A stretch of 64,000 nucleotides of DNA from Methanolinea sp. (GTDB lineage: Archaea; Halobacteriota; Methanomicrobia; Methanomicrobiales; Methanospirillaceae), in NCBI GenBank assembly GCA_029907345.1, contig JARYMB010000005.1, positions 5,485 to 69,484 on the forward strand. The letters are read 5' to 3'. Position 1 is the stretch's first letter; each line of letters begins with the position of its first letter. Of this stretch, positions 31,882 through 58,742 are shown in pieces. The notes beneath the pieces are model-generated. The model was not told the origin of the DNA. It made no database searches and was given only the letters and a program-made list of their open reading frames with translations. The translations under genes were made by a program, and so were the position numbers.

Positions 31882-31964
31882 GGAGAAAACCCTTTTGCCC
31901 CCCTTTTACTCCAAAACAGAACCTTTAAGAGCGTATACCGCGTCTTTACTATGCACTTTCGTGC

Positions 31965-32078
31965 GCTGCGGTGGCCTAGCTGGTTAGGGCGCCAGACTCA
32001 TAGGGTTTTGAGCAGACACAAGAAGCGCCCATCATCTGAGATATCTGGAGGTCGTGGGTTCGGATCCCACCCGCAGCA
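31965..32078 (+). tRNA. tRNA-Met (CAU) with a 40-nt intron at the canonical 37/38 position
   Basis: Acceptor GCTGCGG/CCGCAGC, D-arm GCCT...GGGC, anticodon stem CCAGA/TCTGG, loop CTCATA|intron 32003-32042|A, T-arm GTGGG-TTCGGAT-CCCAC, discriminator A. Exon CTCA can pair with intron TGAG, and intron GGG with CCC, which is consistent with a splicing helix. Confidence 0.85.
32065..32078 (+). repeat. attL core (within tRNA-Met)
   Basis: TCCCACCCGCAGCA, identical to 55964-55977. Confidence 0.65.
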
Positions 32079-32111
32079 TTATAACGTAAGGTTCGAATCC
32101 CCAGGTTTTCT

Positions 32112-32119
32112 TTTATATA
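32112..32119 (+). promoter_or_regulatory. TATA box candidate for the integrase gene
   Basis: TTTATATA is centred about 29 nt upstream of ATG 32145, implying a leaderless or near-leaderless transcript. Confidence 0.4.
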
Positions 32120-32144
32120 CTCCCTTCTCTGACCATTCTTGTAT

Positions 32145-33371
32145 ATGCCTTCCATAGATCAAACACAAAACTATTTTGCCAGCAAGAAACCCGAATACGT
32201 TCATGCAGCGCTCATGAAATCGCTCGCAACCGGTCAGCTGGTCCGTTCAGATGCCGATATCATCACCGAATTTCTGGCCGAACGTAAGTCGGCAGGGGGT
32301 ATCGGATTGAGCCGGACCAACAAAGTTGCTTTCACTTTGATTGGATGGCGTCGGTTTCTGCCTCCTTTCTCCGAGCTTACGATGGGATCTGTCTACACAG
32401 GTATCGAGACACTCAAACACGCCACGAGCAGACATGGGCGACCGTTCAAACAGAACACCATCGCCGACCACGTGGTTATCCTAAAACAGTTCCTGCTCTG
32501 GATGATCGAGAACCAGTACATCAACCTCCCCGAGAAGAAGATCAAGGCCATCAAGAACCCAAGCAAGGACTGGCTGACCAAGACTGCTGCTGACATTCTC
32601 ACTCCGGAGGAGATCCAGAAGATTCTCGATGCCTGCCGGAACTCCCGGGATCGGGCCCTGATCATGACCCTCTACGAAGGAGGATTCCGGGCCGGAGAGG
32701 TTGGGCGGTTGACCTGGGGCGACCTGAAGAATGATTCCAAGGGGATCGCGGTGAATATCGATTTCAAGACTGGTATTCCCCGCTACATCAGGCTGGTCAT
32801 GGCGAAGAGGTATATCGCGGAATGGCGGGCTGATTACCCGCTCATGATTACCCCAGAGTCACCGGTATTTCTGAACATTTACAAGAGACCCCTGACGTGG
32901 GCGGGGATGAGGAAGCAGACCGAGGAGATTGCCAAGAGAGCCGGTATCACCAAACACATCACTCCCCATCTCTTCCGTCATTCGAGAATCACTCACCTGA
33001 TCCAGGAGGGAGCCAAGGAAAGTGTCATCAAGCTCATGATGTGGGGTACGCTGAACACCGATATGTTTGCGACCTATGCCCATCTCTCCGGCAGGGATAT
33101 CGACAGGGAGATTTCCCGGTTGTATGGGCTGGAAGAGGATCCGAACGCAAAAGAACATGCGCGACTCGAACCACGGATATGCCCGGCGTGTAATCTGATT
33201 AATCCGCCCGGTGAAGATTATTGTCGCGGGTGTATGGAAGCTTTATCTGAAGAGGCCATTGCTGATGAAGAATCAATCCGTCGGTTTGTTATAAGTCGCC
33301 CCAGAATGTTTCGTAAATACCTGGACGAAGTTGAGCAAAATAACATTCACTCCACGGTTGAAAAGATTTAA
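32145..33371 (+). CDS. int: Tyrosine recombinase / integrase with C-terminal zinc ribbon
   Basis: Catalytic-domain motifs (RDRALIMTLYEGGFRAGE, HLFRHSRITHLIQEG, FATYAHL) and C-terminal CPACN...CRGC. It lies adjacent to a tRNA gene. The ORF track starts at TTG 32139. Confidence 0.9.
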   Translation: MPSIDQTQNYFASKKPEYVHAALMKSLATGQLVRSDADIITEFLAERKSAGGIGLSRTNKVAFTLIGWRRFLPPFSELTMGSVYTGIETLKHATSRHGRPFKQNTIADHVVILKQFLLWMIENQYINLPEKKIKAIKNPSKDWLTKTAADILTPEEIQKILDACRNSRDRALIMTLYEGGFRAGEVGRLTWGDLKNDSKGIAVNIDFKTGIPRYIRLVMAKRYIAEWRADYPLMITPESPVFLNIYKRPLTWAGMRKQTEEIAKRAGITKHITPHLFRHSRITHLIQEGAKESVIKLMMWGTLNTDMFATYAHLSGRDIDREISRLYGLEEDPNAKEHARLEPRICPACNLINPPGEDYCRGCMEALSEEAIADEESIRRFVISRPRMFRKYLDEVEQNNIHSTVEKI

Positions 33372-33439
33372 AATCCCCATTTCACTTTTTTTTACTTGTA
33401 TGTGACCAGCGGTTTTTCCTCCCTCTTCCCTTGGGTTGC

Positions 33440-33595
33440 ATGCAAGGTGATACATTGAAATCAGAAATTCTCTACACTCGACGTGATGCTTTGGAGGCTT
33501 ATGAACGTCATACTGGCTTCCACGGTATCGGACAGTTTCTCAGAGAACAGGGATTGATCGTCATCAAGGAAGAGGAATCATCATGTGCAGAATAG
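33440..33595 (+). CDS. Small hypothetical protein, 51 aa (not in ORF track)
   Basis: Hand translation gives MQGDTLKSEILYTRRDALEAYERHTGFHGIGQFLREQGLIVIKEEESSCAE. Composition is protein-like and no family was recognised. Confidence 0.3.
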   Translation: MQGDTLKSEILYTRRDALEAYERHTGFHGIGQFLREQGLIVIKEEESSCAE

Positions 33596-33710
33596 CGGGC
33601 TCCCCCAGTATGTTCACGCCTTCCACAGCTCAAACACAGAGGGAACCCATATTTTCCTGTGTGCCTAAGGCAAAAAACCTTCGTATTCCGGATATAATGG
33701 AGGCGTTCTG

Positions 33711-33869
33711 ATGGTCAGGAAGGCTAAGAGATGCCCCCATTTCACCAGCCGGAAAAGTGGGAAGTGGACCGAGATGGTCTGTATGCTGCCTGCCGGAGGA
33801 ATGTGCCCGAATCCCCGATGCCAGGCAAACCCGGATTACCAGGAGCCGGTGCCGGATGCCGGCGAGTGA
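33711..33869 (+). CDS. Small Cys-rich protein, 52 aa (not in ORF track)
   Basis: MVRKAKRCPHFTSRKSGKWTEMVCMLPAGGMCPNPRCQANPDYQEPVPDAGE. GGAGG lies 8 nt upstream of the ATG. The 3' end overlaps the next ORF by 14 nt. Confidence 0.4.
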   Translation: MVRKAKRCPHFTSRKSGKWTEMVCMLPAGGMCPNPRCQANPDYQEPVPDAGE

Positions 33870-34236
33870 GCATTCCGAGACTGCACCTACCACCAATCAC
33901 CAGCGGGGCCGGGCCGTGGAGGCCATGGCCTTCGCCCTTCTGCGCAAGCGAGGATACAGTGTCATCCGCTCCATGCGGTACTCCTCGGCTGTGCATCTGG
34001 TTGCCTGGTGCGACAAGGCCCGCCCCCTCTTTGTCCACGTGAAGCGGACACGGCAGGAGGTGGCCGGTGCGACCGAGGTCGCTGCCCTCTGGCGGGACGA
34101 CATCGCCGCACTCCAGGCTATCCCACGGTGGGATGGGGTATCGGTGCAGCTCTGGGTCCATGCTGGTCCGAAGGGCTGGCGGTTCTTCGAGGTAATGCCT
34201 GGCGGGGTTCTCGAGGTGCATGGCCATGTGGCGTGA
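33856..34236 (+). CDS. Hypothetical protein with weak Hjc/YraN-type (PD-(D/E)xK-fold-like) resemblance
   Basis: RGRAVEAMAFALLRKRGYSVIRS...VHLVAW...LFVHVKRTR resembles the resolvase/endonuclease core, but the acidic catalytic residues are not obvious. Start chosen at MPASEHS. Confidence 0.45.
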   Translation: MPASEHSETAPTTNHQRGRAVEAMAFALLRKRGYSVIRSMRYSSAVHLVAWCDKARPLFVHVKRTRQEVAGATEVAALWRDDIAALQAIPRWDGVSVQLWVHAGPKGWRFFEVMPGGVLEVHGHVA

Positions 34237-34423
34237 ACAGGATGACGGCCACATGACGGACCGGAAGATCTGCCCGATCATGTCCGAGCCGCGAGGCATC
34301 GTTCTCTGCCAGGGGAAGAACTGCGCTGCAGCCTACCCTCGGAATCTTAAGGGAGAGGTCCTCTGGTTCTGTGAGCTCATCGAGGGTCATCCGCCCCAGT
34401 CCGGGAGGGATCATGAGCCATGA
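34220..34423 (+). CDS. Small hypothetical protein (67 aa)
   Basis: The ORF overlaps both neighbours (17 nt upstream, 11 nt downstream), which fits the translationally coupled chain. It contains four Cys residues. Confidence 0.4.
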   Translation: MAMWREQDDGHMTDRKICPIMSEPRGIVLCQGKNCAAAYPRNLKGEVLWFCELIEGHPPQSGRDHEP

Positions 34424-37400
34424 AACCCTCCAGGCCGCCAGGGTCCTCTTCGTTCCCGGTCAGGTTGTCGAAGTCCGGGCTATCATTGACGAGGGGATGG
34501 CGAGCGGGTATTTCGATGATCTGGAGAAGCTCGGGGACCAGGTCGATACACTGGATGGCCTGCCCGGGGTGCAGGGGATTTATGTCACCTTAAACGAGGT
34601 GAACCCGGCCCTTCTCTCCCGGCGTGCGAACCGGATCAAGGCCCGGCTTTCGAAGAAGGACGCTACCACGGCTGATACTGATATCATACGCAGGCACTGG
34701 TTCCCGGTAGATGTGGACCCGGCCCGGCCTTCTGGTGTGTCCTCAACTGATGGGGAGCACAAGGCAGCGATCGATACGGCTGCCCGGGTGGCTGATTACC
34801 TGGCCGATCTGGGATGGCCGGCTCCGGTCTTTGCAGATTCGGGGAACGGTGCTCACCTGCTCTACCGGATCGACCTGCCGAACGACGACCGGTCCCGCGA
34901 CCTGGTGAAGCGGTGTCTCGAGGTCCTTGCTGTCATGTTCGATGATGGCATGACCTCGATTGATACGGCGAATCACAACGCTGCCCGGATCTGGAAGCTC
35001 TATGGGACGATGAGCCGGAAGGGGGACAATACCCCCGACCGGCCTCACCGGAGGTCCTGTATCCTGTCGGTTCCTGCCGAGATTGAGGTAGTGCCCGGGG
35101 AGCTCCTAGAAGGGCTGGCATCTGCCCTCCCTGCTGCCTTCCCTGAGCCGGTACCAAAACAGGGTAGGAGTACCGGCCATACCCTGGACCTTGCCTCCTG
35201 GCTCCGGGACCATCGTATTGGGGTCGCCCGGGAGAAGCCTTACCAGGGGGGCATGCTGTATGTCCTGGACGAGTGCCCGTTCTCCGGTGCCCACCGGGAC
35301 GGGGCCTTCGCTATCCAGTTCCCGAGCGGTGCTATCTATGCCGGTTGCCAGCACGCTTCTTGCGGTGGCGGGTCGCAGCGGTGGCCGGAACTCCGGGAGA
35401 AGTTCGAGCCGAAGGCAGGGAGGGCTACAAAGGAACCAGCAGCCCCCACCCCAGGATCCCGGACACGGACGGCTCTACCTCTCTCCCTTGATGAGCTTCC
35501 TGGTCGGGTGGAGGCTCTGGCGGTCCTGAAGCACGGCGACCCGAAACAGGCGATGCTCCGGACCTTTGCCCTGGATCATGAAGGTGACGAGGTAGTAGCC
35601 GAGTGCCTGATCCTCTCCCTGGCCTCCCGTTCGGTCCTCAATACCAACGGCCTGCACGTCTCTGTGACCGGGGAGAGCGGGAAGGGGAAGAGCCATGCCT
35701 TCTCCTCGCAGCTCAGGCAGGTCCCTCCCCGGTTCCGCCTGGAAGGGGCCATGAGCAACAAGGCTCTCTTCTACCTCGAGGATCTGCAGCCGGGATCGGT
35801 GATCGTGCTGGACGACCGGGCCCTCTCCGAGGACATGGCCGAGATCCTGAAGGGAGTGACCACCTCCTTCCGGACCCCGTTCGTGTACCGGACGGTGAGC
35901 AAGGACCGCCGTGCGCAGGTCTGCACTATTCCCGAGCGGTGCATCTGGTGGGTGGCGAAGGTGGAAGGGGTCGGTGATGACCAGGTATTCAACCGGATGC
36001 TCACCTGCTGGATCGATGATACCGAAGAGCAGGATGCCCGGGTGCTTGTCCGTATCCTGGCCCGCGATGTGTCCCTGCCAAACAACCTCGAGGAGGAGCG
36101 GCCCGAGGTGATGGCTTGCCGGGCTATGTGGGAGCTTGTCGGCCAGCAGCGGTTCTACGTGGTGATCCCTTTCGCCACCAGGATCCGGTTCCAGGCGGCA
36201 GCGAACCGCCGGAACCCGGAGATGCTGCTGGACTTGATCAAGGCCAATACGGTCCTGCGGTTTATGCAGCGGAATCAGCAACGAGTGGGGTCTGTGGTTT
36301 CTCTCACTGCTACCAGCGAGGACTTCCTTGAAGCGACCCGGCTCTATGGGTTGCTGAACGGGACGGTTGGGGGCCAGCAGACTAAGCTCACCAAGCGGGA
36401 GTCCGGGCTGCTGGCGATCATTGAGCGGAGCCAGTGGCCGGAGTTCACCATTCCGATGTTGCAGAAGGCCTCGGGGTTGTCGAATGCATCCCTTCACCGG
36501 ATCATCCACGGCTATGCAAGCAGGGGAGCGGTGTATTCCGGTCTCCTGGAGAAGTGCCCTGCCATCGCCTACTGTGACCGCACGGTGGTGACCGATGAAG
36601 AGGAGCGGGGTCTTTCCATGCGGCGGAGGACCAATGCCTACACGTTTGACCCGGATCTCTACCGGTCCTGGTGTGCGGGCGGGGCGGTCTGGCTGGACGA
36701 TGATGATGACCCGGACCATCCTTCAGCACTTCAGCAGTCCTTCAGCAATCCTTCAGCAGTTGCTGAAGGGAATGAAAACGAACCAGGAAGCCCTGATTCT
36801 AGTAATAATAATAAAAATATTTTATTTAGTACTCATTATGAGGTATCCTTCAGCAAGTCCCAGGATACACAGCACCCTGATCGTGATGGGGTGCAGGCTT
36901 CAGCATGTGTGTGTGATCTGAACTCTGCTGAAGGGCAGGATCCGAATTCTTCTCAAACACCACCAATTCCTGAAAAGTTATCGGATTGTGCCGGAATATC
37001 CCTTCAGAAATCCCTTCAGCAGGATGAAGGTTGCTGTAGGAATGACAGTCCGCGCCGGATTAACGCGAGGGACTACAAGTCCCTGGAAGTTCCTGACCAT
37101 GCACCGTGCTCTCTCTGTGGCAGCTCCTGGACTCACTATGTCGAGAAGTTAACCGAGGAACGGAGGAAGCGGCCAAAGGACCAGTGGCAGCCCCGCCAGA
37201 TCTGCAAGCGGTGTTATACGGCTGCAAAGCGGAAGGCACAGGAATCGGCAGTTATCCTTCCCGGGACCTATGACCTAACCCGGCTGGAGCGGCTGAAGTC
37301 CACGGTCGGCCGGTGCACTATCTGCGAGCTCGATTCAGCCGTTTATATCGACCGCAGCACCGGGACGAAGTTCTGCGATGTTTGCTACCAACGGGTATCC

Positions 37401-37433
37401 GGATCTCCTGATCATGGGGAGGTGAGAGGATGA
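34413..37433 (+). CDS. Replication protein: archaeo-eukaryotic primase-polymerase (PrimPol) domain fused to a P-loop NTPase/helicase and C-terminal zinc ribbons
   Basis: AEP motifs WFPVDVD (DxD), SGNGAHLLYR (sGxGxH) and IDTANHNAARIWKLYGT. A Cys/His cluster CPFSGAHRDG...CQHASCGG follows. Walker A GESGKGKS and Walker B VIVLDD are present. The C-terminus has CSLCGS...CKRCY and CTICE...CDVCY. Likely start MSHETLQ at 34413. Confidence 0.85.
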   Translation: MSHETLQAARVLFVPGQVVEVRAIIDEGMASGYFDDLEKLGDQVDTLDGLPGVQGIYVTLNEVNPALLSRRANRIKARLSKKDATTADTDIIRRHWFPVDVDPARPSGVSSTDGEHKAAIDTAARVADYLADLGWPAPVFADSGNGAHLLYRIDLPNDDRSRDLVKRCLEVLAVMFDDGMTSIDTANHNAARIWKLYGTMSRKGDNTPDRPHRRSCILSVPAEIEVVPGELLEGLASALPAAFPEPVPKQGRSTGHTLDLASWLRDHRIGVAREKPYQGGMLYVLDECPFSGAHRDGAFAIQFPSGAIYAGCQHASCGGGSQRWPELREKFEPKAGRATKEPAAPTPGSRTRTALPLSLDELPGRVEALAVLKHGDPKQAMLRTFALDHEGDEVVAECLILSLASRSVLNTNGLHVSVTGESGKGKSHAFSSQLRQVPPRFRLEGAMSNKALFYLEDLQPGSVIVLDDRALSEDMAEILKGVTTSFRTPFVYRTVSKDRRAQVCTIPERCIWWVAKVEGVGDDQVFNRMLTCWIDDTEEQDARVLVRILARDVSLPNNLEEERPEVMACRAMWELVGQQRFYVVIPFATRIRFQAAANRRNPEMLLDLIKANTVLRFMQRNQQRVGSVVSLTATSEDFLEATRLYGLLNGTVGGQQTKLTKRESGLLAIIERSQWPEFTIPMLQKASGLSNASLHRIIHGYASRGAVYSGLLEKCPAIAYCDRTVVTDEEERGLSMRRRTNAYTFDPDLYRSWCAGGAVWLDDDDDPDHPSALQQSFSNPSAVAEGNENEPGSPDSSNNNKNILFSTHYEVSFSKSQDTQHPDRDGVQASACVCDLNSAEGQDPNSSQTPPIPEKLSDCAGISLQKSLQQDEGCCRNDSPRRINARDYKSLEVPDHAPCSLCGSSWTHYVEKLTEERRKRPKDQWQPRQICKRCYTAAKRKAQESAVILPGTYDLTRLERLKSTVGRCTICELDSAVYIDRSTGTKFCDVCYQRVSGSPDHGEVRG

Positions 37434-38062
37434 GCACGCTCGTCTGCGGTGACTGTAACGAGGGAATGGCCCGGATGCGGTCCGGGTCGGTGGATATCAT
37501 CTTCACCGATCCCCCCTACATCAAGAATCTCTATGCAGAGGCGTACCAGGTCCTTGCCAGGCATGCCGGCCGGTTACTGGTACCCGGTGGCTACCTTGTC
37601 AGCTACTGCCCGCAGTTCCATCTTCCAGTCATTCTTCGTATCCTGGACGGGAGTGGACTAGCCTACTTCTGGCTCTGTGCCCAGCTGAACAGCGGGGCGA
37701 AGACGATCGTCTGGTCCCGCAATGCGATGTGCGGATGGAAACCAGTGGTGATCTACCAGAAGCCACCGGTCACTGCACCGAATCAGATCTTCATTGATGT
37801 GCTCCGGGGTGTGAGAGCCAAGGCTTTCCATCCCTGGCAGCAGTCGATCCATGAGACTCTGCATCTCCTCTCCCGGCTGGCAGCACCCGGGGCCCTGGTG
37901 CTCGATCCCTATGCGGGGACCGGGACCAACCTGATCGCTGCCCAGCTCCTCGGGATGAACTACCACGGTTTTGAGATTGACCCGGCGACCTATCGGATCG
38001 CCCAGGACCGTCTCACCCAACGGCCGCTTGACCTGGCCGTCTATTCGGAGGCTACGACTTGA
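37430..38062 (+). CDS. DNA methyltransferase (beta-class, DPPY; N6-adenine or N4-cytosine)
   Basis: DIIFTDPPY (motif IV) precedes VLDPYAGTGTN (motif I). Start overlaps the replication gene stop (ATGA). No adjacent restriction enzyme was recognised. Confidence 0.85.
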   Translation: MSTLVCGDCNEGMARMRSGSVDIIFTDPPYIKNLYAEAYQVLARHAGRLLVPGGYLVSYCPQFHLPVILRILDGSGLAYFWLCAQLNSGAKTIVWSRNAMCGWKPVVIYQKPPVTAPNQIFIDVLRGVRAKAFHPWQQSIHETLHLLSRLAAPGALVLDPYAGTGTNLIAAQLLGMNYHGFEIDPATYRIAQDRLTQRPLDLAVYSEATT

Positions 38063-38183
38063 CACCAGACCTGACACTCTACACAATCGAAATCTACTGG
38101 AACAGCGACGAACTGGAAGACACCTCGGCCAATGGGGGCTTTGCCTATCATGAAACGAAGATGGACAAATCGGAGGGAAAGCC

Positions 38184-38441
38184 ATGAACGATGTGGTTGT
38201 GATGAACCTGGGCGATGCTATCGAGATAGCGAAGGAGAAGGAACGGCAGAACCGGGTCCCCATTTGGAAACGTTACTATGTCCGGCACCGAGAGCAGGAA
38301 CTTGCCCGCAGGAAGGAGTACCGGGAGAACAACAAGGACGCCATCGCTGAGTACAACCGGAACTACTACCGGTCCCGTAAGATGCAGAAAGCAGTGGCTA
38401 CCGGAAAGGGAGAACTCATGAACGAGGTGTCTCATGCTTGA
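38184..38441 (+). CDS. Hypothetical basic protein (85 aa)
   Basis: Arg/Lys/Tyr-rich helical sequence (RYYVRHREQELARRKEYRENNKDAIAEYNRNYYRSRK). It is part of the overlapping chain. Confidence 0.5.
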   Translation: MNDVVVMNLGDAIEIAKEKERQNRVPIWKRYYVRHREQELARRKEYRENNKDAIAEYNRNYYRSRKMQKAVATGKGELMNEVSHA

Positions 38442-38561
38442 GACGATTCGGAATGGAATCAGGTGGCTGGCAGCTGTCCTGAAGGGAGAGGGTGATAAGG
38501 CTGTTCTCCGGGAGGAATCAGAGAGCCAAGTATCCGGGACCCTGGTCGGGGCCCTTCCCAC

Positions 38562-38729
38562 CTATCGGTAGCTCTCGGCAATATCCTCGGCCTTTACCCG
38601 GAGGTCCTGGGCATCCGATATCATCACGGAGGCCTTGTGCTCGAGTTCTACCGCCTTTTCCTGGTATAAGCTGATCTGTTGCAGGTCATTGATTGGGATC
38701 ACATCATAGACGCTCTGATGATTGCTCAT
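38562..38729 (-). CDS. Small coiled-coil hypothetical protein, 55 aa (not in ORF track)
   Basis: MSNHQSVYDVIPINDLQQISLYQEKAVELEHKASVMISDAQDLRVKAEDIAESYR. Its ATG overlaps the stop of the upstream minus-strand gene (ATGA). Confidence 0.4.
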   Translation of the reverse strand: MSNHQSVYDVIPINDLQQISLYQEKAVELEHKASVMISDAQDLRVKAEDIAESYR

Positions 38730-39109
38730 GCGGACACCTCGGCGACCTTTTGAGAGGAGAGGGAGAGATGGCTGCCTGGCATCTCTCTCATGATCGAGAC
38801 GTTCGCGTATTTCCGGTTACCTTGCAGGACCCCGTTCACCTGGGCGAAGGGTGAAACATACCGGGTGCCTTGAATGGTGTACATTACTGCCCGGCCGGAC
38901 CTGCTGATCCACGCCCTGCCCACGGCCTTGGGCTGGCCGGCGGTCTTCATCACATCGCTGATGTCATAGACATCAACAGGCCAGCGCTCGACTAACCGGG
39001 GGAGATCTGACCGTGAGATCACGGCCTGCATGGTCTTGATGTCGATCCGAAGGGTGCCCTCATAATGACGGGCTGCCCCTATGTGTTCAAAGATTGTTGT
39101 TCTGGACAT
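38726..39109 (-). CDS. Hypothetical protein (127 aa), first gene of a minus-strand two-gene module
   Basis: Protein-like composition. A TATA-like GATATATT lies about 22 nt upstream of the ATG on the minus strand. No family was recognised. Confidence 0.6.
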   Translation of the reverse strand: MSRTTIFEHIGAARHYEGTLRIDIKTMQAVISRSDLPRLVERWPVDVYDISDVMKTAGQPKAVGRAWISRSGRAVMYTIQGTRYVSPFAQVNGVLQGNRKYANVSIMREMPGSHLSLSSQKVAEVSA

Positions 39110-39819
39110 TGGTGGTTCTCACCAATATATCAGAGGATACATAGGGAGATATAGTGCTCCCATAGGCGGTGTGAAAGTGAACTAATCACGTCGGAGCGGG
39201 CCTCCGGCCTTCGCCCACTGCTCGCTTCCGCTCGCGGCGAGGGCTCGGCCTGCGGCAGGTTTATTGGGAATATGGTATCGCTCCGCTCCGGCGACGCCCT
39301 CACTGCGTTCGGTGGCGGCCTCCGCTCTGCTGGTTTATCGGTTTACGGGATAGCTATCGGTCGACCGTGCTCGATTTCACTCCGTTCCGCTCGCACCGTC
39401 TCCCTGATCTCTCTACCTGGACCGGGCTGCTAATGACGCCCGTGGTTTCGTCGCAGGCTCCTCACCACCGGCTGCCAGGACCCGCTCCTCGCGGACCGCC
39501 GCGGCGGACCGCTCGTCGCTGATGGATGGAATTCCTGAACTAATCCCCCTTCAAGCACCTCTCCTGATGCCATCCCTGGTGAGTGCCCGGAGGGTCGAAC
39601 CGGGCGGCACGCGGTGCCGGCTACGGAGCAGCCGCTGAGCAGAGCGGTAAAGCGGGTGCAATTGCTATGCCAAGGCCATAGCGACCTGAGCGGGCACCGA
39701 TTACGACATGCATCAACGGGTTGCCAACTCACTAGAAAATAGGATTAACTTAACTTACTCAACAAATAAGCAATAAATAACAAATTATATCCGGCACTGC
39801 ATGCAATTTTTACATCTCT

Positions 39820-48000: not shown

Positions 48001-48188
48001 TCAGTGAGCCCCCCGGGGCGGCAGTCTCCTTCAGGGGCCTGAAGACCGGTGAGATTACTCCGTGTAGCCTGGATAACGTTCCGATAGGTGTGTGGGACGT
48101 CACCTTGACGCAGGACAAGATAAAAAAAGGTATTGATGCAACCGTAGAACCGGGTAAGGCAAGGACCTACTCGGTGGTGTTTGATTGA
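45006..48188 (+). CDS. Large secreted surface protein (1060 aa): A-type domain, unknown central domain and at least five PEGA-like domains
   Basis: Signal peptide MKWDFLLILGIVASLLVITPSVSGA. The A-domain signature is as above. PEGA-like units are present (IEVTSDPAGARVYLDG, VSSSPDGAMVILDN, IHSYPETAEIRIDG, IASVPDGAEIFLDG, LISEPPGAAVSFRG). ATG overlaps the wtpC stop. Confidence 0.85.
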   Translation: MKWDFLLILGIVASLLVITPSVSGASTEVHIVLYAADGYTVLNETTVDYRWMEQHLPVRGDGTTHYYLQGPVFVDNAEKRWNPDEDTNVLDKDMGAVKGTDLRDLCELVGGMEPGDTVTLRASDGFSKVFAYENVYEPSARQGSMVITWYHANQSYVPGYADGMRLVFFADTSTNPWGVHAMGNYDWYESATEEYWYYYSQEGQLYPTTTGLSVKYISEIQIWSSREPQGSIEVTSDPAGARVYLDGVDTGYDTPCIMDELTVGSYSLTVRKNGYLTPEEQDAEVTAGMTVPISFKLEQSAQGGGDSGSGDGGIGGFIATTDQAPLSGGQLLGTEDLRVNGTVVLHPSATAPFMFRGGEEHLLTFDTNTFPPIHPALVRLYLFLDSSNADPGVDIRPQILVSAGTEEFAPIRSYSEEGDDDRLYATTLVYNLIKTNENGTLILSNRNGPSWNTTVVGALLLLGYEQEGAIETRAWICEGADLIGVIPGQETPMTMAEFSGDIPAVANGNASIITVTTPDSAEGNLSFYVNGMGMPARLIPGDSPVAVHEVSGFQGLIQAGVRLHIATNGLPVTNRVAVLLTSFEQPSRDLPDSVREGVTTGIQPTGTRIIGTPGPEPAHEEVVPGGAVPRSDPIGDFLCWLLNLILVLGGQPTEPCHPGRGSVVPVQDTTVSSEESSGLSGALSRIQVSSSPDGAMVILDNQFTGLVTPCGIDIMPGEIHSIRIAKDGYQPFEQNITGPAELEIILVPVPHLSEVFDTPAPAPARSHHGGIYIHSYPETAEIRIDGVVVGTSSPVLITPLKEGFHTIMAGIPAGTNSYSARQTVRTWVFPDAIVPVEFNLMNTVTASTITITGDSQAGVQFTVNGYYPVKRIPERVEVAGNPAFITLTNGSSYLSFTIPPSSLESGQFFIPSGDPLLCNLSIASVPDGAEIFLDGIRTGLLTPAIISNVSAGYHRISLTQRGRIPVTELILIAESQCLMGDHSVRYPLTWYPSGSLRLISEPPGAAVSFRGLKTGEITPCSLDNVPIGVWDVTLTQDKIKKGIDATVEPGKARTYSVVFD

Positions 48189-48189
48189 C

Positions 48190-49443
48190 ATGACTGCAGA
48201 GCGAGGTGTTATGGCATTCTCCCTTTTTTTGGTTGCCGCCTGCAGCATTCCAGCCGTGTCAGGTCTTTCCGGAGATATCAGTCCCAGCATTGTTCAACGG
48301 GGGCCGTTTCTCACGAATATGACAACTGATTCAGTCACTGTCACTTGGTGGACGGAACAACCATGCAGTGGAACAGTCTCGTACAGAGAAACAAACCACC
48401 TGATGAATGGATCGCTTGACCGGATGGTTACCGAAGAGCAATCTTCATTCGTCCATCGCATCAAGCTCACCAATCTCACGCCGAATCAGACCTATGGATA
48501 TACTATTTCCGGGAGCTCTGCGGAGTATACATTCCGGACTTTTCCCATGCACGGGACAATCCGTTTCGTAGTGTATGGTGATACCCGTGAGCAGTTACCG
48601 TGGTGGAACCAGTCGACCCACCATGCACTGGTCGCGGGGCGGATTGCTACGGAACCGGACGTCCTCTTTGTTGTCCATACTGGTGACCTGGTAAATGATC
48701 CAGAAGATGCAGGAGAGTGGGACCGTTTTTTTGCTGCAGCAGAGCCGATGCTTAACCATACCCCGTTCTACCCCGTTACCGGTAACCATGAACAGGATTC
48801 CGAAGTCCTCCAGGAGATCTTTGGAGTTCCTTCCTGGTATGTCATCCAATGCGGGGATGTCCGGGTGGTCGTGCTGGACAGCAATCCCCTATCCCCCCAA
48901 CTGACAGCGTCACAGGACCGTTTTGTTGCCGTAAACCCTGAGAAAAGAGGGACATGGACGTTTGTCGCCCTTCACCACCCGCTCTACAGCGCTGATCCGA
49001 ATCATCCGGGAGGGTTCCTAGATGCCAGGGAACGGTGGGAACCGGTCTTTCGGGAATGGGGCGTCAGCGCGGTGTTCGCTGCTCATGTCCACGCCTATGA
49101 ACATGCCGAGCAGAACGGAATCCACTATTTCACCGTTGCAACGGGTGGAGCACCGTCATACCTACTCTCCCCAGAGAAACCAGAAGGCTATGTAACAGAC
49201 CTTGAGAATACACTCGGGTATGCGATAGTCACTGTGAATAGCACGAATAACTCGGCAGTAATTGAGTTTGTCAAGGTTGCTGATATCAGGGGAGCAGCCA
49301 TTCGATTGGATCCCCCAGGAACTGTTTATGAACGGGTGGTTCTGGATAGAGGACCAGGGGTTACAAACAGAAGGGATAGATCCGGCTTTCCGATCCTTTT
49401 CACATCACATTTGGGTGATAGAAAAATCAACTTGTTAACTTAA
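48190..49443 (+). CDS. Secreted purple-acid-phosphatase-like metallophosphoesterase
   Basis: Signal peptide and an N-terminal FN3-like PAP domain (VTVTWWTEQPCSGTVSY). Metallophosphoesterase motifs YGDTRE, HTGDLVND, GNHE, ALHHPLYS and AAHVHAYEH. The start immediately follows or overlaps the upstream stop (TTG 48181 or ATG 48190). Confidence 0.85.
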   Translation: MTAERGVMAFSLFLVAACSIPAVSGLSGDISPSIVQRGPFLTNMTTDSVTVTWWTEQPCSGTVSYRETNHLMNGSLDRMVTEEQSSFVHRIKLTNLTPNQTYGYTISGSSAEYTFRTFPMHGTIRFVVYGDTREQLPWWNQSTHHALVAGRIATEPDVLFVVHTGDLVNDPEDAGEWDRFFAAAEPMLNHTPFYPVTGNHEQDSEVLQEIFGVPSWYVIQCGDVRVVVLDSNPLSPQLTASQDRFVAVNPEKRGTWTFVALHHPLYSADPNHPGGFLDARERWEPVFREWGVSAVFAAHVHAYEHAEQNGIHYFTVATGGAPSYLLSPEKPEGYVTDLENTLGYAIVTVNSTNNSAVIEFVKVADIRGAAIRLDPPGTVYERVVLDRGPGVTNRRDRSGFPILFTSHLGDRKINLLT

Positions 49444-49536
49444 TCTAGCTAATTTTCACGATAAAAATAGAAACATTCTTAATTTTTGTAATTAAGTGAA
49501 CTTGTTAACATTTTGCAATGGTTAAGGTGAATTGAA

Positions 49537-52500
49537 ATGGCACGAATACTTTGTGAAACGAAATTTCTGTGTATTCTGGTTCTTGCAGCGGTATGCTGTT
49601 GTGTACCAGCAATTGCCGCGGGAACTACCGAAGTGCATGTCGTAAAGTATGCGATCGATGGAATAACCATCATTAACGATACAACGGTCTCGTTCCAGTG
49701 GATGGAAGCGAACCTTCCCATTCACGGCGATGGGGTTACCCATTACTACATGCAAGGGCCGGTAATGAACGAGAGCATCACTGATAAGTGGAATCCTGAA
49801 GAGAATGATCCGGCCATACTAACCAAGGACTTTGGGGCAGTAAAAGGGACAGACGTAAAAGACCTCTGCGATCTAGTCGGAGGGATGGGAGCAGATGATT
49901 TCAATGTCACCCTCAAGGCGTCTGATGGATTCAAAAAGGCCTTTGCCTATTCAAGTGTTTATAATCCACCCGAACGGGCAGGACCGATTATCCTTACGTG
50001 GTACAGGGCTGACCAGGGGTATGTAGACAGCTCGTATTCTACCGGTATTCGAAATGTGATGTTTGCAGACACCATCACGAATCCCTGGGGATACCATGTC
50101 TTTGGACTCTGGGACATGCACGAGGCCTATCCAGAAGCGTTCTGGTATTATTACCAGCCAGGTCAACCGAGCGCAACCGGGCTCTCGGTGCAGAATATCG
50201 ACCGGGTCCTTATTTATACGAATGATCCGGTCCCGCTCAAAGCAGACTTCACCACAAACACGTCCTCAGGTACTGCCCCGCTCACCGTCCAGTTCACGAA
50301 TACTTCAGCAGGAGGACCCACATCCTTTGCGTGGGATTTCAATAACGACGGTATCGTTGATGATACCAGCCAGAATCCGATCTGGACATACACCAATGCA
50401 GGAATTTACACGGTCAACCTAACGATTAGTAATGGGGCGGAATCTGACTCGGAAATTAAGATCGACTTAATAACGGTAAGTGCAGTTCCGGCGACCGTCA
50501 TCTACAATGGCACCGTAACCCTTACCGATGGAAATTTCACCTGGATGGACAGTAGTGGAAGCAGCCATACGATTCCCAATCTCACACCGCACGGCGCTCT
50601 TGAGGAGGCATACCAACAGGATGGATTCACCTATGGAGGAGGTTGGAGTAGTGGAAAATTGACTGCCTTTATCGATTGGGTTGATGACGGGGGCACCAAC
50701 TTTACTTACATTGCTGGCCCGCCAAAGATAACATGGAACTACCAACTAAACGGAGTGTACCAGAATTACAATTCCGCAACCACTGGTGTCAGTAATAAGG
50801 CAATCGGTAACGGAGATCATATTGAGTTCTATTACGGGCCCAACCAGACAACTACGGAAAATGCTACTGCTGTAATCAGGTTGAATATCAACATTCCCCC
50901 TCCGCAACCCAGCATGGACATTCTATTTGACGGTTCTGTTAACCTCACACCCGGTGAGACCTTCAATGTAACCGCTTATAATTCTGGGGTTCTCTATACC
51001 GTGAACCGTACCACCCCCCTCGGTGCGCTCGATAAGGTATCCATTGCCCAGGGCTTCTTTTATAATGTTACTGACAAGCGATGGTCTTCTGATCAGGTAC
51101 TCCTTCTGGACGATGTCAACGGCTATAAACGGAATACTCCCGGGAACTGGTTTGCCTACGTGAACGATGTATATAAGGATGGATACGCGAATCATCCCAA
51201 CGGGTTGAATGTCATCGAACTTGTCAGCGGCGACCAGGTAGATTTTTACTATGCTGCCAATGTCAGCGATAAAAACAACCTTACCGAGACAATCTCCAAG
51301 GCTACTGCAGCAATTAAGATTTCTATAACTATCGAAGGCTCTTCTCCGTCACCCCTCGATTGGAGCCTCTCTCTCAAAGGCGCTCGTGACCAGACTGTGA
51401 CAAAAACCTACTTCGAACAGGGACTTGCCTGCCCTTCGTCAGGCCACATGGTGAACTGGACTGATGCCAGCGGAAGCGTATGGAGCGGAATCCCTCTCTG
51501 GTTACTGGTGGCAATGGTTGACGATAACCCGGATATCGGGCCTGATCACTTCAACTTTAATGACACCCTCGCTGCCCAAGGATACTCCGTTAAAATCACC
51601 GCAGGTGACGGCTTCAATACAACCCTCGCAAGCGCAGATATTGCGCGGAATAATGGGTATATCGTTGCGAACAAGCTGAACGGCACCGATCTCCCGCTTC
51701 TCACACCCGGAGGGAAGCTTAGCTGGCCGCTTCACTTGAAGGGGTCTTCAGTGTTTGGCGGGCAGCAGGTCGGGAATATAACCATGATCGAGCTGACGGG
51801 GATGCCTCAGCCGTCCCAAGGATGGACACTCACCATGGAGGGAGATGTCGTTGATGTCATCTCACAACAATATTTCGAACAGGCTATAGTTTGCCACCAT
51901 AATGTCACGTATACCGATGCGAGTGGCAGCGTATGGACCGGCGTCCCTCTCTGGGATCTAGTTGGTGCCGTCGATGATGTTGAGACTTCCAGTCACTGGA
52001 CGTTCAATGATACCCGGGCAAATGTCAGCGGATATACGGTCCGGGTTATTGCCGGAGATGGCTATAACAGGACATTTGCCAGCCAGAATGTGAGTCATAA
52101 TGACGGGTTCATCGTTGCCAATACATTGAACGGAACCCCGCTATCCGGGACAAACGGGCATCTCAAACTTGTCGGCCCGGCCACTACATCATCCGGTCAG
52201 CGGGTTTCAAATATCACCAGGATTCGTCTTGAAGGGCTTCCATCATACCCATCGGGTGAATACAGCCTCTCTCTGAAAGGAAAGATCACTGACGTGATTC
52301 CCCAGCCTGAGCTGGAGGCGTGGATTGCCTCGAATACCGCAACTTATACCGATGGGAGCGGGAACGAGTATTCCGGTATCCCCCTCTGGCGGCTTCTTGC
52401 ATGGGTCGATGATCGCATTCCTGCAGGGCCAAGTGCGTTCAATGATGACGTTGCAACGGCCGGCTATAAGATCATCGTCAAGGCCGGCGATGGATATTCC

Positions 52501-54660
52501 AAGGAGTTCCTGAGCGGTGCAATCGCTCGGAGCAACGATTATATCGTCGCAAATACCCTGAACGGTAGTGCCCTGCCGACCGGAGGCAGCCATCCACCAT
52601 GGCCTCTCCGCCTTGTCGGTTCGGGGGCAACCGGAGGTAGCAGCGTCGGTAACATCGTTGAGATCGAACTGACTGACTTCGCATCCGTTCAGACCGCAGC
52701 CCCGATCCATATCATAAAGTACGGACCAGATGGGGTCACGATCATCAATGAGACGAATGTGACTCATCAGTGGATGGAAGCAAACCTTGCTGTAATTGGT
52801 GACGGGACAACGGTATACAAGTTCGAGGCAATTACGAATACTCCCGCAAACATCTGGGATCCGGAGGAGACTTACCCCGGCGGATTCAAGATTGCAAATG
52901 CTGTGAAAGGCTCTCGTGTCCGCGATCTCTGTGACCTGGTGGGAGGAATGGGTACCGGAACCGAGATTAAATTTATCGCCAGCGATGGTTATGAGACAAC
53001 GCTCCCCTACTCATCGATCTATACTGACCCGTCAGTGCAGACCCGACAGGGTGATGCGATTCTGGCGTGGTGGAGTGACGGCCAGTATGTGCCCTATTAC
53101 TCAGATGGTATGCGGCTTTTCTTTACACCGGCTGACAGGATCTACGGCCAATGGGACATGAACCAGACATTACCCTCTAACTACCACCACTTCTACTACC
53201 AGGACGGCATATTTTATCCGTCATGTGCAGGATTGTCTGCCAAATATGTCACGACCATTAAGATCTATTCAGAACCTTCTACTGCCTGGACCCTCGACCT
53301 GGATGGCCGTGATATTGGCGGGATTCACACCACTATCAGCAAGACCTATTTCGAACAAGCCCTTGCCTGCCAGTTCGGCGCTAACCATTCTGTAACCTAT
53401 ACCGATAGCAGCGGACGCGAATGGGGAGGCATGCCGCTCTGGTTCCTCTGCGGATTTGTGGACGACTCCGATCAGCATTCGAGCAATGCTTACAATGAGA
53501 CGCAAGCGCTGGGCGGATACAATATCACCATCACCGGCACTGACGGTTACAATTACACATTCGACAGCAGGGACACGATCAGGAATACGAACTACATTGT
53601 CGCAAACACCCTGAATGGAACTCCCATCCCAGACGGCGACTCGAGCTGGCCTCTCCGCATGGTAGGTCAGAATGTCTCCGGCAAGATGGTGGTCAAGAAA
53701 ATCGCTTCGATTAAGCTGGTTTCATTTGAATCCCAGCCACCTGGTGACCGGACCGTCTACCTGGCACCATCATCACTTGCAGTGATAAATGGAACGACAG
53801 CGAACTGTGAAGTGCGGGTGTCCTCCCTCCCAGAAGGTCTTGCTGGGTATGACCTCCAGGTGACGCTCGATACTCCATCCATCGCCGAGATTGTCGGGGT
53901 GCAATATCCCGGCTGGGGGAGCATGAACAACACCACCCCGCTTCCACCAGCTGATTCCCTCCGATTAAGCGGTGTTGATGTTGGCCGACAGGTCGAACCT
54001 GGTGCTGGGAGTACGCTCCTTGCGACTATTACTATTCGGGCGGACAGTCCGGGAACCAGCGGTATAACCATCTCTGCGGTGAACATGGATGCAGATGGTG
54101 GAGAAATGATCACACCTATGGTTACTTCCGGCGAAATCGTGATATACGTCCCGATGGTCGCTGATTTCACTGCAAATGTTACATCTGGAAAAGCTTCCCT
54201 GGCCCGGCCATTGTTCGTGAATTTCACGGATCTCTCATCCGGTGTGCCACCCGGTTCGTCCTGGTTATGGGACTTTGATAACAACGGAGTAGTGGATAGC
54301 ACGCTCCAGAACCCCGTGACCTCGTTCACCAAATCCGGTAATTACACGGTTAAACTTACTGTGCAGAACACCTACAGCTCAGATACTGAAATCAAGGTCG
54401 ATTACATCAGGGTCACTTCATTTGTCAAGCCGTTCCCTGGCCAGACCAATGAACCGACCGATCCGGATGGCGACTACCTGTATAAGGATATCAACGGGAA
54501 TGGCAGGCTTGACTATGATGATGTTGTCATCTACTACGAGAACATGCAGTGGATCCGTGACCAGTTCGATGTCGGTATCGAACCATATGATTACAACGGC
54601 AACGGCCGTATCGACTATGACGATGTCGTTCTCCTCTACTGGGAGGTTTTGGAGAGCTAA
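49537..54660 (+). CDS. Giant secreted multidomain protein (1707 aa)
   Basis: Domain order is signal, A-domain, PKD, 2x DUF4430-like, 3x B-domain, A-domain, B-domain, cohesin-like, PKD, dockerin. PKD: PLTVQFTNTS...WDFNNDG...YTVNLT. DUF4430-like: WNYQLNGVY...GDHIEFYY and WFAYVNDVY...GDQVDFYY. B-repeats: W-x-L-x-L-x-G...TYFEQ...YTDASG..W.G.PLW...DG(F/Y)...IVAN.LNG..L...WPL.L.G. Dockerin: DINGNGRLDYDDVV...DYNGNGRIDYDDVV. Confidence 0.9.
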   Translation: MARILCETKFLCILVLAAVCCCVPAIAAGTTEVHVVKYAIDGITIINDTTVSFQWMEANLPIHGDGVTHYYMQGPVMNESITDKWNPEENDPAILTKDFGAVKGTDVKDLCDLVGGMGADDFNVTLKASDGFKKAFAYSSVYNPPERAGPIILTWYRADQGYVDSSYSTGIRNVMFADTITNPWGYHVFGLWDMHEAYPEAFWYYYQPGQPSATGLSVQNIDRVLIYTNDPVPLKADFTTNTSSGTAPLTVQFTNTSAGGPTSFAWDFNNDGIVDDTSQNPIWTYTNAGIYTVNLTISNGAESDSEIKIDLITVSAVPATVIYNGTVTLTDGNFTWMDSSGSSHTIPNLTPHGALEEAYQQDGFTYGGGWSSGKLTAFIDWVDDGGTNFTYIAGPPKITWNYQLNGVYQNYNSATTGVSNKAIGNGDHIEFYYGPNQTTTENATAVIRLNINIPPPQPSMDILFDGSVNLTPGETFNVTAYNSGVLYTVNRTTPLGALDKVSIAQGFFYNVTDKRWSSDQVLLLDDVNGYKRNTPGNWFAYVNDVYKDGYANHPNGLNVIELVSGDQVDFYYAANVSDKNNLTETISKATAAIKISITIEGSSPSPLDWSLSLKGARDQTVTKTYFEQGLACPSSGHMVNWTDASGSVWSGIPLWLLVAMVDDNPDIGPDHFNFNDTLAAQGYSVKITAGDGFNTTLASADIARNNGYIVANKLNGTDLPLLTPGGKLSWPLHLKGSSVFGGQQVGNITMIELTGMPQPSQGWTLTMEGDVVDVISQQYFEQAIVCHHNVTYTDASGSVWTGVPLWDLVGAVDDVETSSHWTFNDTRANVSGYTVRVIAGDGYNRTFASQNVSHNDGFIVANTLNGTPLSGTNGHLKLVGPATTSSGQRVSNITRIRLEGLPSYPSGEYSLSLKGKITDVIPQPELEAWIASNTATYTDGSGNEYSGIPLWRLLAWVDDRIPAGPSAFNDDVATAGYKIIVKAGDGYSKEFLSGAIARSNDYIVANTLNGSALPTGGSHPPWPLRLVGSGATGGSSVGNIVEIELTDFASVQTAAPIHIIKYGPDGVTIINETNVTHQWMEANLAVIGDGTTVYKFEAITNTPANIWDPEETYPGGFKIANAVKGSRVRDLCDLVGGMGTGTEIKFIASDGYETTLPYSSIYTDPSVQTRQGDAILAWWSDGQYVPYYSDGMRLFFTPADRIYGQWDMNQTLPSNYHHFYYQDGIFYPSCAGLSAKYVTTIKIYSEPSTAWTLDLDGRDIGGIHTTISKTYFEQALACQFGANHSVTYTDSSGREWGGMPLWFLCGFVDDSDQHSSNAYNETQALGGYNITITGTDGYNYTFDSRDTIRNTNYIVANTLNGTPIPDGDSSWPLRMVGQNVSGKMVVKKIASIKLVSFESQPPGDRTVYLAPSSLAVINGTTANCEVRVSSLPEGLAGYDLQVTLDTPSIAEIVGVQYPGWGSMNNTTPLPPADSLRLSGVDVGRQVEPGAGSTLLATITIRADSPGTSGITISAVNMDADGGEMITPMVTSGEIVIYVPMVADFTANVTSGKASLARPLFVNFTDLSSGVPPGSSWLWDFDNNGVVDSTLQNPVTSFTKSGNYTVKLTVQNTYSSDTEIKVDYIRVTSFVKPFPGQTNEPTDPDGDYLYKDINGNGRLDYDDVVIYYENMQWIRDQFDVGIEPYDYNGNGRIDYDDVVLLYWEVLES

Positions 54661-54834
54661 AAAAGAGGATAGGGTTATACCGAGGAATACCGTGCACCAC
54701 CGTAACATTCGACGAAGAATAGGTATTGGGAGACAGTATGGGACAAGACACAATCTCCTAGGGGGAGGGCCGGTTCTGTCCCCTTCAAAACCCTCGCTTC
54801 GTTTTCAGAACCCTCCTCACATAAGGAAAGTTCC

Positions 54835-55638
54835 ATGAACCGCAAGACAGTTCGATTGGCATCAATATTAGTTGCCTGTACCCTGCTCCTCTTTTTCCCG
54901 GTTGGAGCTGCCAGTATCGGGATGATCCCTTCATCAGTCACTATCCAGAAGAGTGGAACCGCTGAAATCAGTCTTGTGCTTGACGATGCAGTGTCAGGCC
55001 TTGCAGGATATGACTTGGTTATTCGGTTTTCGAATCCCACAATAGCGGAAATCTCTGAGGTCACCTATCCAGCATGGGCTGCCTTGAACAATACAACGCG
55101 GAAAGCCGACAGCTCAGTAAGGATAAGCGGGGTGGACCTCTCCCGGCAGGTGAATCCGGGCATGACTGCGGTCCCCCTTGCCAACCTTAAAATTCGAGGG
55201 ATTTCAGGGGGTTCGTCTTCGATTTCTCTCGAGTCAGTGAATATGGATGCTGATGGGGGGGCAGCAATCACTCCTACTCTACCTACCGGACAGATCACAG
55301 TGCCTGGCGGGACCACTCCTTCAGGAGGTGGGGGTGGTGGAGGTGGAGGAAGTTCTGTATCTTCCGTAACGCAATCACAGACTTCACCAACGCCCACATC
55401 ATCGCCAACAGCCATCATAACTCAGGAGATACCCACAGTGGCAAGCCAGGAGACTATCCAGCCACCGTTGACAACAGCGACAATGGCTCAGGAACAAGTC
55501 GGGCCATACATAACTGAGGAAGTTCCTGAAAGTGTGGGAGGCATTCCCTGGATGTGGATTCTGGGAGGAATTATCGTCATCGGCGCACTGATTGTTGTTG
55601 CTTTCATTGCATGGCGGAAAGAACAGGAGCAGGGATGA
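54835..55638 (+). CDS. Membrane-anchored cohesin-domain protein (scaffoldin-like anchor)
   Basis: Signal peptide, then a cohesin-like domain closely paralogous to the one in the 1707-aa protein (GLAGYDLVIRFSNPTIAEISEVTYPAWAALNNTT...RISGVDLSRQV...SLESVNMDADGG). A Gly-run/Ser-Thr-Pro linker and C-terminal TM plus basic tail (IIVIGALIVVAFIAWRKEQEQG) follow. Confidence 0.8.
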   Translation: MNRKTVRLASILVACTLLLFFPVGAASIGMIPSSVTIQKSGTAEISLVLDDAVSGLAGYDLVIRFSNPTIAEISEVTYPAWAALNNTTRKADSSVRISGVDLSRQVNPGMTAVPLANLKIRGISGGSSSISLESVNMDADGGAAITPTLPTGQITVPGGTTPSGGGGGGGGGSSVSSVTQSQTSPTPTSSPTAIITQEIPTVASQETIQPPLTTATMAQEQVGPYITEEVPESVGGIPWMWILGGIIVIGALIVVAFIAWRKEQEQG

Positions 55639-55963
55639 AAGCCCGACTTGAAGGGATGAACTACCACATGGTTATTTCATTATAAAAAAATCACCTTGCA
55701 CTTTTTTCAACACAAGGCTAGAGAACGAGCCGTTTAGATTGGTGGGGAAAGTCACGGTGATAAGTAGGCTGCAATTATGAAAATTGTGGGCGATGAAATA
55801 ATCGGGGCGCAAAAACGCAGCGTTCTACCTCCCATCCCTCGCATATTATCGGAGTTTCTCTAACTTGTTTGATTCCGTGGGGTATGGTTGGGATATCTGT
55901 TGGTTCAAGAGACTAAATTGTGCGCGAGTGGAAAAATAAGCGCATAGCACCTTCCGTTTCACG

Positions 55964-55977
55964 TCCCACCCGCAGCA
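55964..55977 (+). repeat. attR core (copy of tRNA-Met 3' end)
   Basis: TCCCACCCGCAGCA lies in an A/T-rich non-coding stretch and is identical to 32065-32078. Confidence 0.65.
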
Positions 55978-58705: not shown

Positions 58706-58742
58706 ACCCGCTCACCCGCAAGCCGCCGGTGTCGCCCGAACC

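Follow-up and report, generated by a model that had tools for sequence, protein, structure and literature searches.

Small integrated elements of archaea, including some from Methanosphaerula, encode a primase-polymerase (prim-pol) of the family arCOG07809, of which Mpal_2033 of Methanosphaerula palustris is an example (Makarova et al., 2014; PMC4158269). The arCOG07809 protein combines the prim-pol with a helicase, a helix-turn-helix (HTH) and a zinc finger. Some of the elements carry integrases and have identified integration sites, and the authors' proposal is that these are satellite viruses in integrated form (PMC4158269). The locus described here lies in 64,000 nucleotides (nt) of contig JARYMB010000005.1 (positions 5,485 to 69,484, assembly GCA_029907345.1), which we call the window and whose numbering we use throughout. 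Its host is a methanogen that resembles Methanolinea and belongs to the Methanoregulaceae. Directly behind an intron-containing tRNA(CAU) gene, the window holds a 23.9-kb island with a tyrosine integrase, a replication protein (Rep), a DNA methyltransferase and a long operon for tungstate transport and large proteins. Relative to an ancestral junction of the tRNA with a ROK kinase gene, all of 32079-55963 is inserted DNA, whether it came as a single piece or as a composite. Our preferred explanation, held with moderate confidence, is that this interval is a single cargo-carrying element inserted at the tRNA 3' end by site-specific recombination.

The limits of the insertion are best seen against a relative in which the site is empty. 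In Methanolinea sp. GCA_030055515.1 (L102; related loci are designated by L and a number) the order is pycB-pycA, the intron-containing tRNA, 89 nt, and then ROK and, further on, enolase. This locus is collinear with the window over 22096-32078 and 56173-62919. Nucleotide homology ends with the final tRNA base (32078) and is picked up again within ROK, at 56173; the window therefore contains about 24.1 kb of extra DNA that starts exactly at the tRNA 3' end. L102 was reached through homologues of the ROK kinase, after a scan anchored on pycA had yielded no empty site: in one genome per species of GTDB, the ROK, enolase and cargo genes were all absent within 10 kb of the tRNA. The initial annotation, made from the letters alone, had pointed to an empty junction of this kind as something to look for in relatives, and had regarded the operon standing here without integrase and repeat as evidence to the contrary; the former is seen in L102, and no relative carries the wtp and surface-protein operon at this locus.

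The order pycB-pycA-tRNA(CAU) is kept in about 65 Methanomicrobiales loci, and the sequence 3' of the tRNA varies in nearly every genome. L083, a closer relative in which ROK is 88% identical, has the same pycA-tRNA and ROK flanks with a different filling of 7.2 kb between them. That filling (10936-18091 of L083) is an island encoding a radical SAM protein, PNPOx, DUF1722 and a HEPN/nucleotidyltransferase pair, and a 74-amino-acid (aa) fragment of a related integrase lies beside the tRNA.

The target tRNA is found at full length by Rfam (RF00005, 56.8 bits), its anticodon arm enlarged by about 42 nt; elongator Met and Ile2 tRNAs are not separable from the anticodon CAU alone. ARAGORN called no tRNA at 31965-32078 because of the intron. 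The 3'-terminal 14 nt, TCCCACCCGCAGCA, occur in exactly two copies in the window, 32065-32078 and 55964-55977, both on the plus strand, and allowing one mismatch adds no further copy. Dinucleotide-preserving shuffles gave 0.04 expected matches, with at least two copies in 0 of 100 shuffles. The second copy sits in a non-coding gap of 530 nt between the end of a 267-aa open reading frame (ORF) at 55638 and the stop codon of ROK (56169, minus strand). The island thus lies between direct repeats of the tRNA's 3' end, the tRNA itself being complete, with pycA and pycB on its left and the ROK kinase and enolase genes on its right. What the initial annotation had read here, namely an intron-containing tRNA with an insertion at its 3' end, a single exact recurrence of its last 14 nt and housekeeping genes on both flanks, stands in full, and pycB can be added on the left.

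Nor is the 14-mer common outside the window. In 1.4 Mb of related loci, second exact copies are confined to the 3' side of this same tRNA, on the same strand, where they bound other islands. With the same limits, these 14 nt enclose a segment of 4.2 kb in L004 and L093 and one of 5.1 kb in L070. In L085, whose ROK is 96% identical, a decayed core, TCCCATCTGCAGCA, followed by the same CTTCTTT, occupies the equivalent position beside ROK. Integrases recur at this tRNA as well. The 133 nt after the tRNA in L004 and L007 are about 92% identical to 32079-32211 of the window, including the first 22 integrase codons, beyond which a histidine kinase gene interrupts the relic; L088 and L093 have kept a comparable remnant of the integrase's opening codons. 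Full-length homologues of the integrase (35-67% identical) follow this tRNA in L040, L050, L101, L019, L031, L041 and L054. In all, an integrase or a fragment of one follows this tRNA in about ten relatives, and its 3' end is thus a hotspot that related integrases have used again and again.

Further evidence on the ends of the island comes from JGI metagenome contigs, scanned with a degenerate pattern that fits attL, attR, attB or attP. In one contig (L089, 1628-1750), 63 nt that are 89% identical to 55915-55977 of the window are directly followed by 60 nt that are 90% identical to 32079-32138, with no tRNA 5' part. This is the arrangement expected of an attP or of a junction between tandem copies, and it shows that the two ends of the window's island correspond to the pair of arms of a single type of element. 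The L089 junction is flanked by a PKD-domain gene and, on its other side, by a gene for an alpha/beta hydrolase. A weaker likeness of the right arm, compared with that to L089, is seen in L070 and L085, in the sequence to the left of their second core copies. As a separate observation, the left arm holds, at 32088-32102, the sequence AAGGTTCGAATCCCC, which resembles a fragment of a tRNA T-arm and may be a relic of another tRNA-derived att site.

The integrase begins with an ATG 67 nt after the tRNA and is intact, and its catalytic residues (R182, K208, H275-x-x-R278, W300 and Y311) are invariant among its relatives in an alignment. In an exact look-up the ATG-start form was matched; the TTG-start form and pycA were not. 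Residues 346-363 (33180-33233) form a zinc ribbon, CPACN...CRGC, which is conserved in the relatives; such a C-terminal four-cysteine ribbon is not known from typical tyrosine recombinases. The small ORFs at 33440-34423 have no family matches in library scans that included PHROGs.

Rep shows motifs belonging to the AEP superfamily (archaeo-eukaryotic primases; FPVDVD and SGNGAHLLY), the two Walker motifs (A, GESGKGKS; B, VIVLDD) and CxxC pairs at the C-terminus. A precomputed assignment to Pfam PF27228 is on record; scans against local Pfam, PHROGs and NCBIfam gave no match, nor did sequence and profile searches against PDB. Its AlphaFold (AF2) model, confident over the N-terminal 330 residues, matches the folds of MCM helicases (E ~1e-4) and of Prim-PolC (E ~1e-3), and its N-terminal third is 45% identical to a Methanomethylovorans plasmid gene and 35% identical to a Bacteroides phage polymerase. 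Its homologues number more than 2,300. The named ones all come from Methanoregulaceae or Methanomicrobiales, the isolates Methanoregula formicica and Methanolinea mesophila among them, and all are annotated as hypothetical; a scan of IMG/VR with Rep found no relatives. For the methyltransferase, general family scans recognised no partner nuclease.

This backbone of 6.5 kb (32079 to about 38570) recurs elsewhere with different cargo, at 86% nucleotide identity in L098 and 80% in L101, the latter again behind a pycA-tRNA. The integrase, Rep and methylase of the window are full-length and 67-94% identical to the other copies, with 94% for Rep in L098. The cargo of L098 (6918-14730) is of a defence type, with two Schlafen/AlbA_2 proteins and an N6_Mtase/Eco57I-like (type IIG-like) methylase, and that of L101 includes a PIN toxin pair.

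The composition of the island sets it apart from its surroundings. The G+C content (GC) of 32079-55963 is 0.542, against 0.594 in the rest of the window and 0.60-0.65 in the 8 kb adjoining it to either side. Cut into 6.5-kb chunks, the interval lies throughout at a tetranucleotide distance of 0.020-0.032 from the host; host chunks give a mean of 0.0135 (sd 0.002, maximum 0.0165). GC at third codon positions (GC3) is 0.47-0.73 inside the interval and 0.77-0.84 in pycA, pycB, ROK and enolase. The whole interval is thus compositionally foreign, up to 55.9 kb, with a shift at both borders, which puts figures to the greater A/T-richness that the initial annotation had judged by eye. Its gene assignments fared equally well. 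The tyrosine integrase behind the tRNA and the methylase are backed by the Pfam matches listed in the table, the latter being kept in the backbone of relatives; "PrimPol-helicase" is a reasonable label for Rep, given the AEP and Walker motifs and the Prim-PolC and MCM fold matches; and the gene calls for a cargo operon after the backbone hold. The coordinates of all these features are collected below.

Table. Features of the tRNA(CAU)-linked island, in window coordinates
Feature	Position	Strand	Evidence
Intron-containing tRNA(CAU), integration target	31965..32078	+	Rfam RF00005; 3' 14 nt now presumably supplied by the element (attL)
attL core, 14-bp identity segment TCCCACCCGCAGCA, last base = discriminator	32065..32078	+	Same limits repeated in L004/L093 and L070
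Left arm (P' arm), non-coding, core to integrase start	32079..32138	+	90% identical to right of core in L089; 92% in relics of L004/L007
Tyrosine integrase, 408 aa, intact, C-terminal four-cysteine zinc ribbon	32145..33371	+	Pfam PF00589, 80.9 bits; PHROG integrase families
Four small ORFs (51, 52, 87, 67 aa), partly overlapping	33440..34423	+	Gene calls on near-identical contig
Rep, 1006 aa: N-terminal AEP primase-polymerase, P-loop ATPase, winged-helix-like region, C-terminal Cys-rich zinc-finger region	34413..37433	+	
N6/N4 DNA methyltransferase, 210 aa	37430..38062	+	Pfam PF01555; PHROG 67; beside Rep in L098, L099, L101
Small ORFs (42, 85, 45 aa), end of conserved backbone	38059..38571	+	Homology ends at 38566 (L098), 38480 (L101)
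Two ORFs (55, 127 aa), start of variable region	38562..39109	-	Gene calls
Conserved GC-rich non-coding segment, short internal repeats	39193..39413	.	84% L009/L070, 68% L071
Two paralogous proteins (289, 282 aa) and a molybdopterin-oxidoreductase-domain protein	39820..42097	+	PF00174; paralogous repeats D1-D3
WtpA, WtpB, WtpC tungstate/molybdate ABC transporter	42058..45009	+	TIGR03730, Pfam domains
PEGA-repeat protein (1060 aa), purple-acid-phosphatase-like protein (420 aa), PKD and molybdopterin giant (1707 aa), 267-aa ORF	45006..55638	+	Pfam
Right arm (P arm), non-coding	55915..55963	+	With core, 89% identical to left of core in L089
attR core, putatively the displaced original tRNA 3' end	55964..55977	+	Exact repeat; degenerate counterpart beside ROK in L085

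The cargo is a plus-strand operon of ten genes, among them wtpABC and the PEGA and PKD proteins, within a variable region of about 17 kb (from about 38570 to 55963). Its first three genes have homologues at 63-73% identity in L106. WtpA exceeds the cutoff of its model (TIGR03730, 341.5 bits against 242.75); for WtpB and WtpC the best matches are likewise Wtp models, at scores below the cutoff (236 bits against 340 and 265 bits against 440). NCBI has a record of an identical WtpA from a Methanolinea sp. metagenome-assembled genome, which probably belongs to the source organism. The proteins encoded at 45006-55638 are predicted to be surface-located or secreted. A domain of about 190 aa, delimited by repeats in the DNA, is present in four to five copies (39990-40550, 40820-41290, 45080-45650, 49620-50130 and 52729-52951): both small cargo proteins contain it, and the PEGA and PKD giants carry it N-terminally, an arrangement kept in L106-L109. 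Molybdopterin-oxidoreductase (sulfite-oxidase-like) domains lie at 41495-42097 and at 51780-52175 (residues 748-879 of the PKD protein), and their presence in apparently secreted or surface proteins beside a tungstate transporter is an unusual pairing.

At the start of the variable region, the 127-aa minus-strand ORF has a 41% identical homologue 2.6 kb after the tRNA in L039. The conserved segment at 39193-39413 gave no match in Rfam at a permissive threshold and shows weak covariation with RNAalifold; it may represent an origin, a gene for a small RNA or an older island's left end. Elsewhere in the window are a tRNA-His and two tRNA-Ala genes (8682-8754, 16245-16316 and 16816-16889, minus strand) and a fluoride riboswitch (crcB motif, 62817-62879, minus strand; Rfam 51.4 bits, gathering score 34).

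These features can be accommodated in a simple scheme. The tyrosine integrase would have recombined attP, the element's 14-bp core, with attB, the identical 14 nt that terminate the tRNA. The copy carried by the element would complete the tRNA 3' end (attL), and since a replacement 3' end is supplied in this way the tRNA would stay intact; the original 3' end would have been displaced by 23.9 kb, to where it would now lie beside the old trailer and the ROK gene (attR). The same enzyme could presumably still excise the island, all 23.9 kb of which would have moved as one unit. The backbone gene set suggests a plasmid-like or satellite-like life as a circle, probably replicated by the PrimPol-ATPase Rep, with a methylase that may shield the element from host restriction. 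As for the cargo, the tungstate ABC transporter and the large surface proteins may have been captured from another Methanoregulaceae genome.

Several observations weigh against this scheme. No excisionase, conjugation, capsid or packaging gene was recognised in the Pfam and PHROG scans, and virion genes (capsid, portal, terminase) were likewise absent, the backbone having been covered by Pfam and PHROGs and the cargo by Pfam. Neither a circular form nor an empty site of this exact element was found, and the junction-pattern scans gave only relatives: IMG/VR returned 0 matches, and JGI no exact attB or attP, a weak negative because the scan also missed a contig known to be near-identical. The L089 junction, too, has no integrase on either side and no Rep beside it. 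We therefore take it as a degenerate tandem or episomal relative and not as proof of excision here, and its reading as a free circular copy was rejected on the same grounds.

Other observations concern the unity of the island. Other Methanoregulaceae have the operon with its gene order unchanged, at 53-85% identity, and without an adjoining integrase or Rep; it stands after a catalase and a Na/Ca exchanger gene in L106-L108 and after an MBL-fold gene in L109, with a homologous arrangement of the PEGA, PKD and purple-acid-phosphatase-like proteins in all four. In L009 and L070, sequence about 55 nt behind the tRNA matches the segment 39193-39413 at 84% identity; in L071 the figure is 68%. GC3 also differs somewhat between the backbone (0.63-0.73) and the cargo (0.47-0.64). 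The position of the conserved segment fits an older island onto which a module of 7.1 kb was added, and together with the operon found elsewhere it means that a composite origin has to be reckoned with. In such a history the integrase-Rep-methylase module (32079 to about 39190, about 7.1 kb) would be the mobile part, and the remaining 16.8 kb (39193-55963) an older insertion, related to the integrase-less islands of L070 and L085, with the intervening att site lost. L070 and L004 demonstrate that core-bounded islands can persist at this tRNA without a working integrase, and the elements of PMC4158269 are small, as such a module would be.

We consider this history possible, though on balance unlikely. 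No relic of the core, the P arm or the P' arm was found at or near 39190 or anywhere else inside the island, where only chance 9- to 12-mers occur; the best candidate for a decayed core, lying at about 39155, agrees in 8 of 14 positions, a level put down to chance. Beside the same backbone no second core is found within 15.3 kb in L098 or within 7.9 kb in L101, and long variable regions are therefore usual for this backbone. The right arm, which would belong to the older insertion, is 89% identical to the arm that in L089 is joined to a left arm of the window's type, whereas its likeness to the L070 type is weak. Finally, backbone and cargo are mutually coherent in tetranucleotide profile (distance 0.0185-0.0207, within the 0.0177 +/- 0.003 found between host chunks).

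That the island is instead a decayed and immobile one, an ancient hotspot inherited vertically whose contents were turned over by ordinary recombination and whose 14-mer is a relic, seems to us improbable. Second core copies do stand beside diverged arms in several species, many loci hold integrase fragments only, and one contig indicates homologous exchange around the island. This is the near-identical JGI contig Ga0417229_000335 (L001/L002), which has zero differences from the window over 32023-59000, is identical in other blocks too, and diverges by 8-10% over 29500-32022 and 59000-61500, the left divergent block ending inside the tRNA intron. Such a mosaic fits recombination tracts that stop where homology ends, or a chimeric assembly. 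We rejected it as evidence of recent transfer, as the identity extends 3 kb beyond attR and is seen in further blocks as well. Against long decay, the integrase, Rep and methylase have kept their full length and their similarity to other copies, the core is exact while the adjoining non-coding DNA has diverged beyond alignment between species, and the interval has not been ameliorated to the host composition. The idea that a small integrase cassette merely sits beside the tRNA, with the remainder being native chromosome and the repeat a coincidence, deserves hardly any credence: 14 bp is short for an archaeal att site and the operon resembles a normal one of the family, but the 89 nt between tRNA and ROK refute it unless L102 is misassembled, the same improbable repeat bounds other islands, and the foreign composition reaches 55.9 kb.

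A single element inserted at the tRNA(CAU) is therefore the reading that we carry forward, and the discovery as such is modest. Integrase islands linked to tRNA genes are textbook material, and this type of Rep was already flagged in 2014; what is new is the exact anatomy of the att sites, the behaviour of the hotspot and the size of the cargo. The locus offers a fully bounded example, with an exact 14-bp core, both arms, an empty site and relatives with other cargo, for hosts that matter: Methanoregulaceae are major methanogens of freshwater and peat, and their mobile elements are barely characterised. It could serve as a reference for annotating the "hypothetical" Rep genes of the family, and its integrase/att pair and candidate replicon might be a start for genetic tools. 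Should the cargo indeed travel with its element, then horizontal transfer can spread tungstate uptake and cell-surface traits among methanogens. A bolder proposition, which we regard as doubtful, is that the island is an active member of a very large, experimentally uncharacterised plasmid-like or satellite family, specific to tRNA-Met(CAU), that moves whole host operons between methanogen species, in this case one for tungstate uptake together with giant surface proteins that bear molybdopterin-binding domains. Were this true, mobile elements would be transferring the supply of trace metals on which the enzymes of methanogenesis depend.

How, then, does the island compare with known elements? 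The plasmids of the pRN1 type (with the ORF904 prim-pol and a superfamily 3 (SF3) helicase) and of the pTN2 type, from Sulfolobus and Thermococcus, share with it a plasmid-like lifestyle (PMC2777425). They differ in that no sequence similarity to them is detectable (the PDB profile search was empty), in that the ATPase model of the island's Rep resembles MCM/AAA+ proteins and has no clear SF3 fold, and in that the element is integrated through its own integrase.

The integrase genes of archaeal integrative plasmids and fuselloviruses of the SSV, pT26-2 and TKV types are split upon integration, their attP lying inside the gene. The window's integrase keeps an unbroken ORF of 408 aa, with the core 67 nt upstream of its start; integration has not split the gene, and the island is therefore not of the SSV type. 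It has no sequence relationship to the core genes of pT26-2 either. What it has in common with these elements is an archaeal host, a tyrosine recombinase, integration into the 3' part of a tRNA gene and variable cargo (PMC6972569).

A parallel can also be drawn with the tRNA-linked genomic islands and integrative mobilisable elements of bacteria, such as islands with P4-like integrases. The archaeal host, the intron-bearing target tRNA and the AEP prim-pol replication module set our island apart from them, and no mobilisation or conjugation genes were recognised in it. The order of tRNA, core, integrase, cargo and second core is nevertheless the same, and so are the use of a hotspot with tandem or decayed islands and a cargo of transport and surface functions.

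The arCOG07809 elements are described as small, unlike this island of 23.9 kb with its 17 kb of cargo, and the endonucleases named in PMC4158269, or any other nuclease family, were not detected in it. The resemblance to them lies elsewhere. Both have Methanomicrobiales hosts, an integrase with an identifiable integration site, and no capsid genes seen; and the Rep of the island follows the same succession of primase, P-loop helicase/ATPase, HTH and zinc finger, a likeness of domain order.

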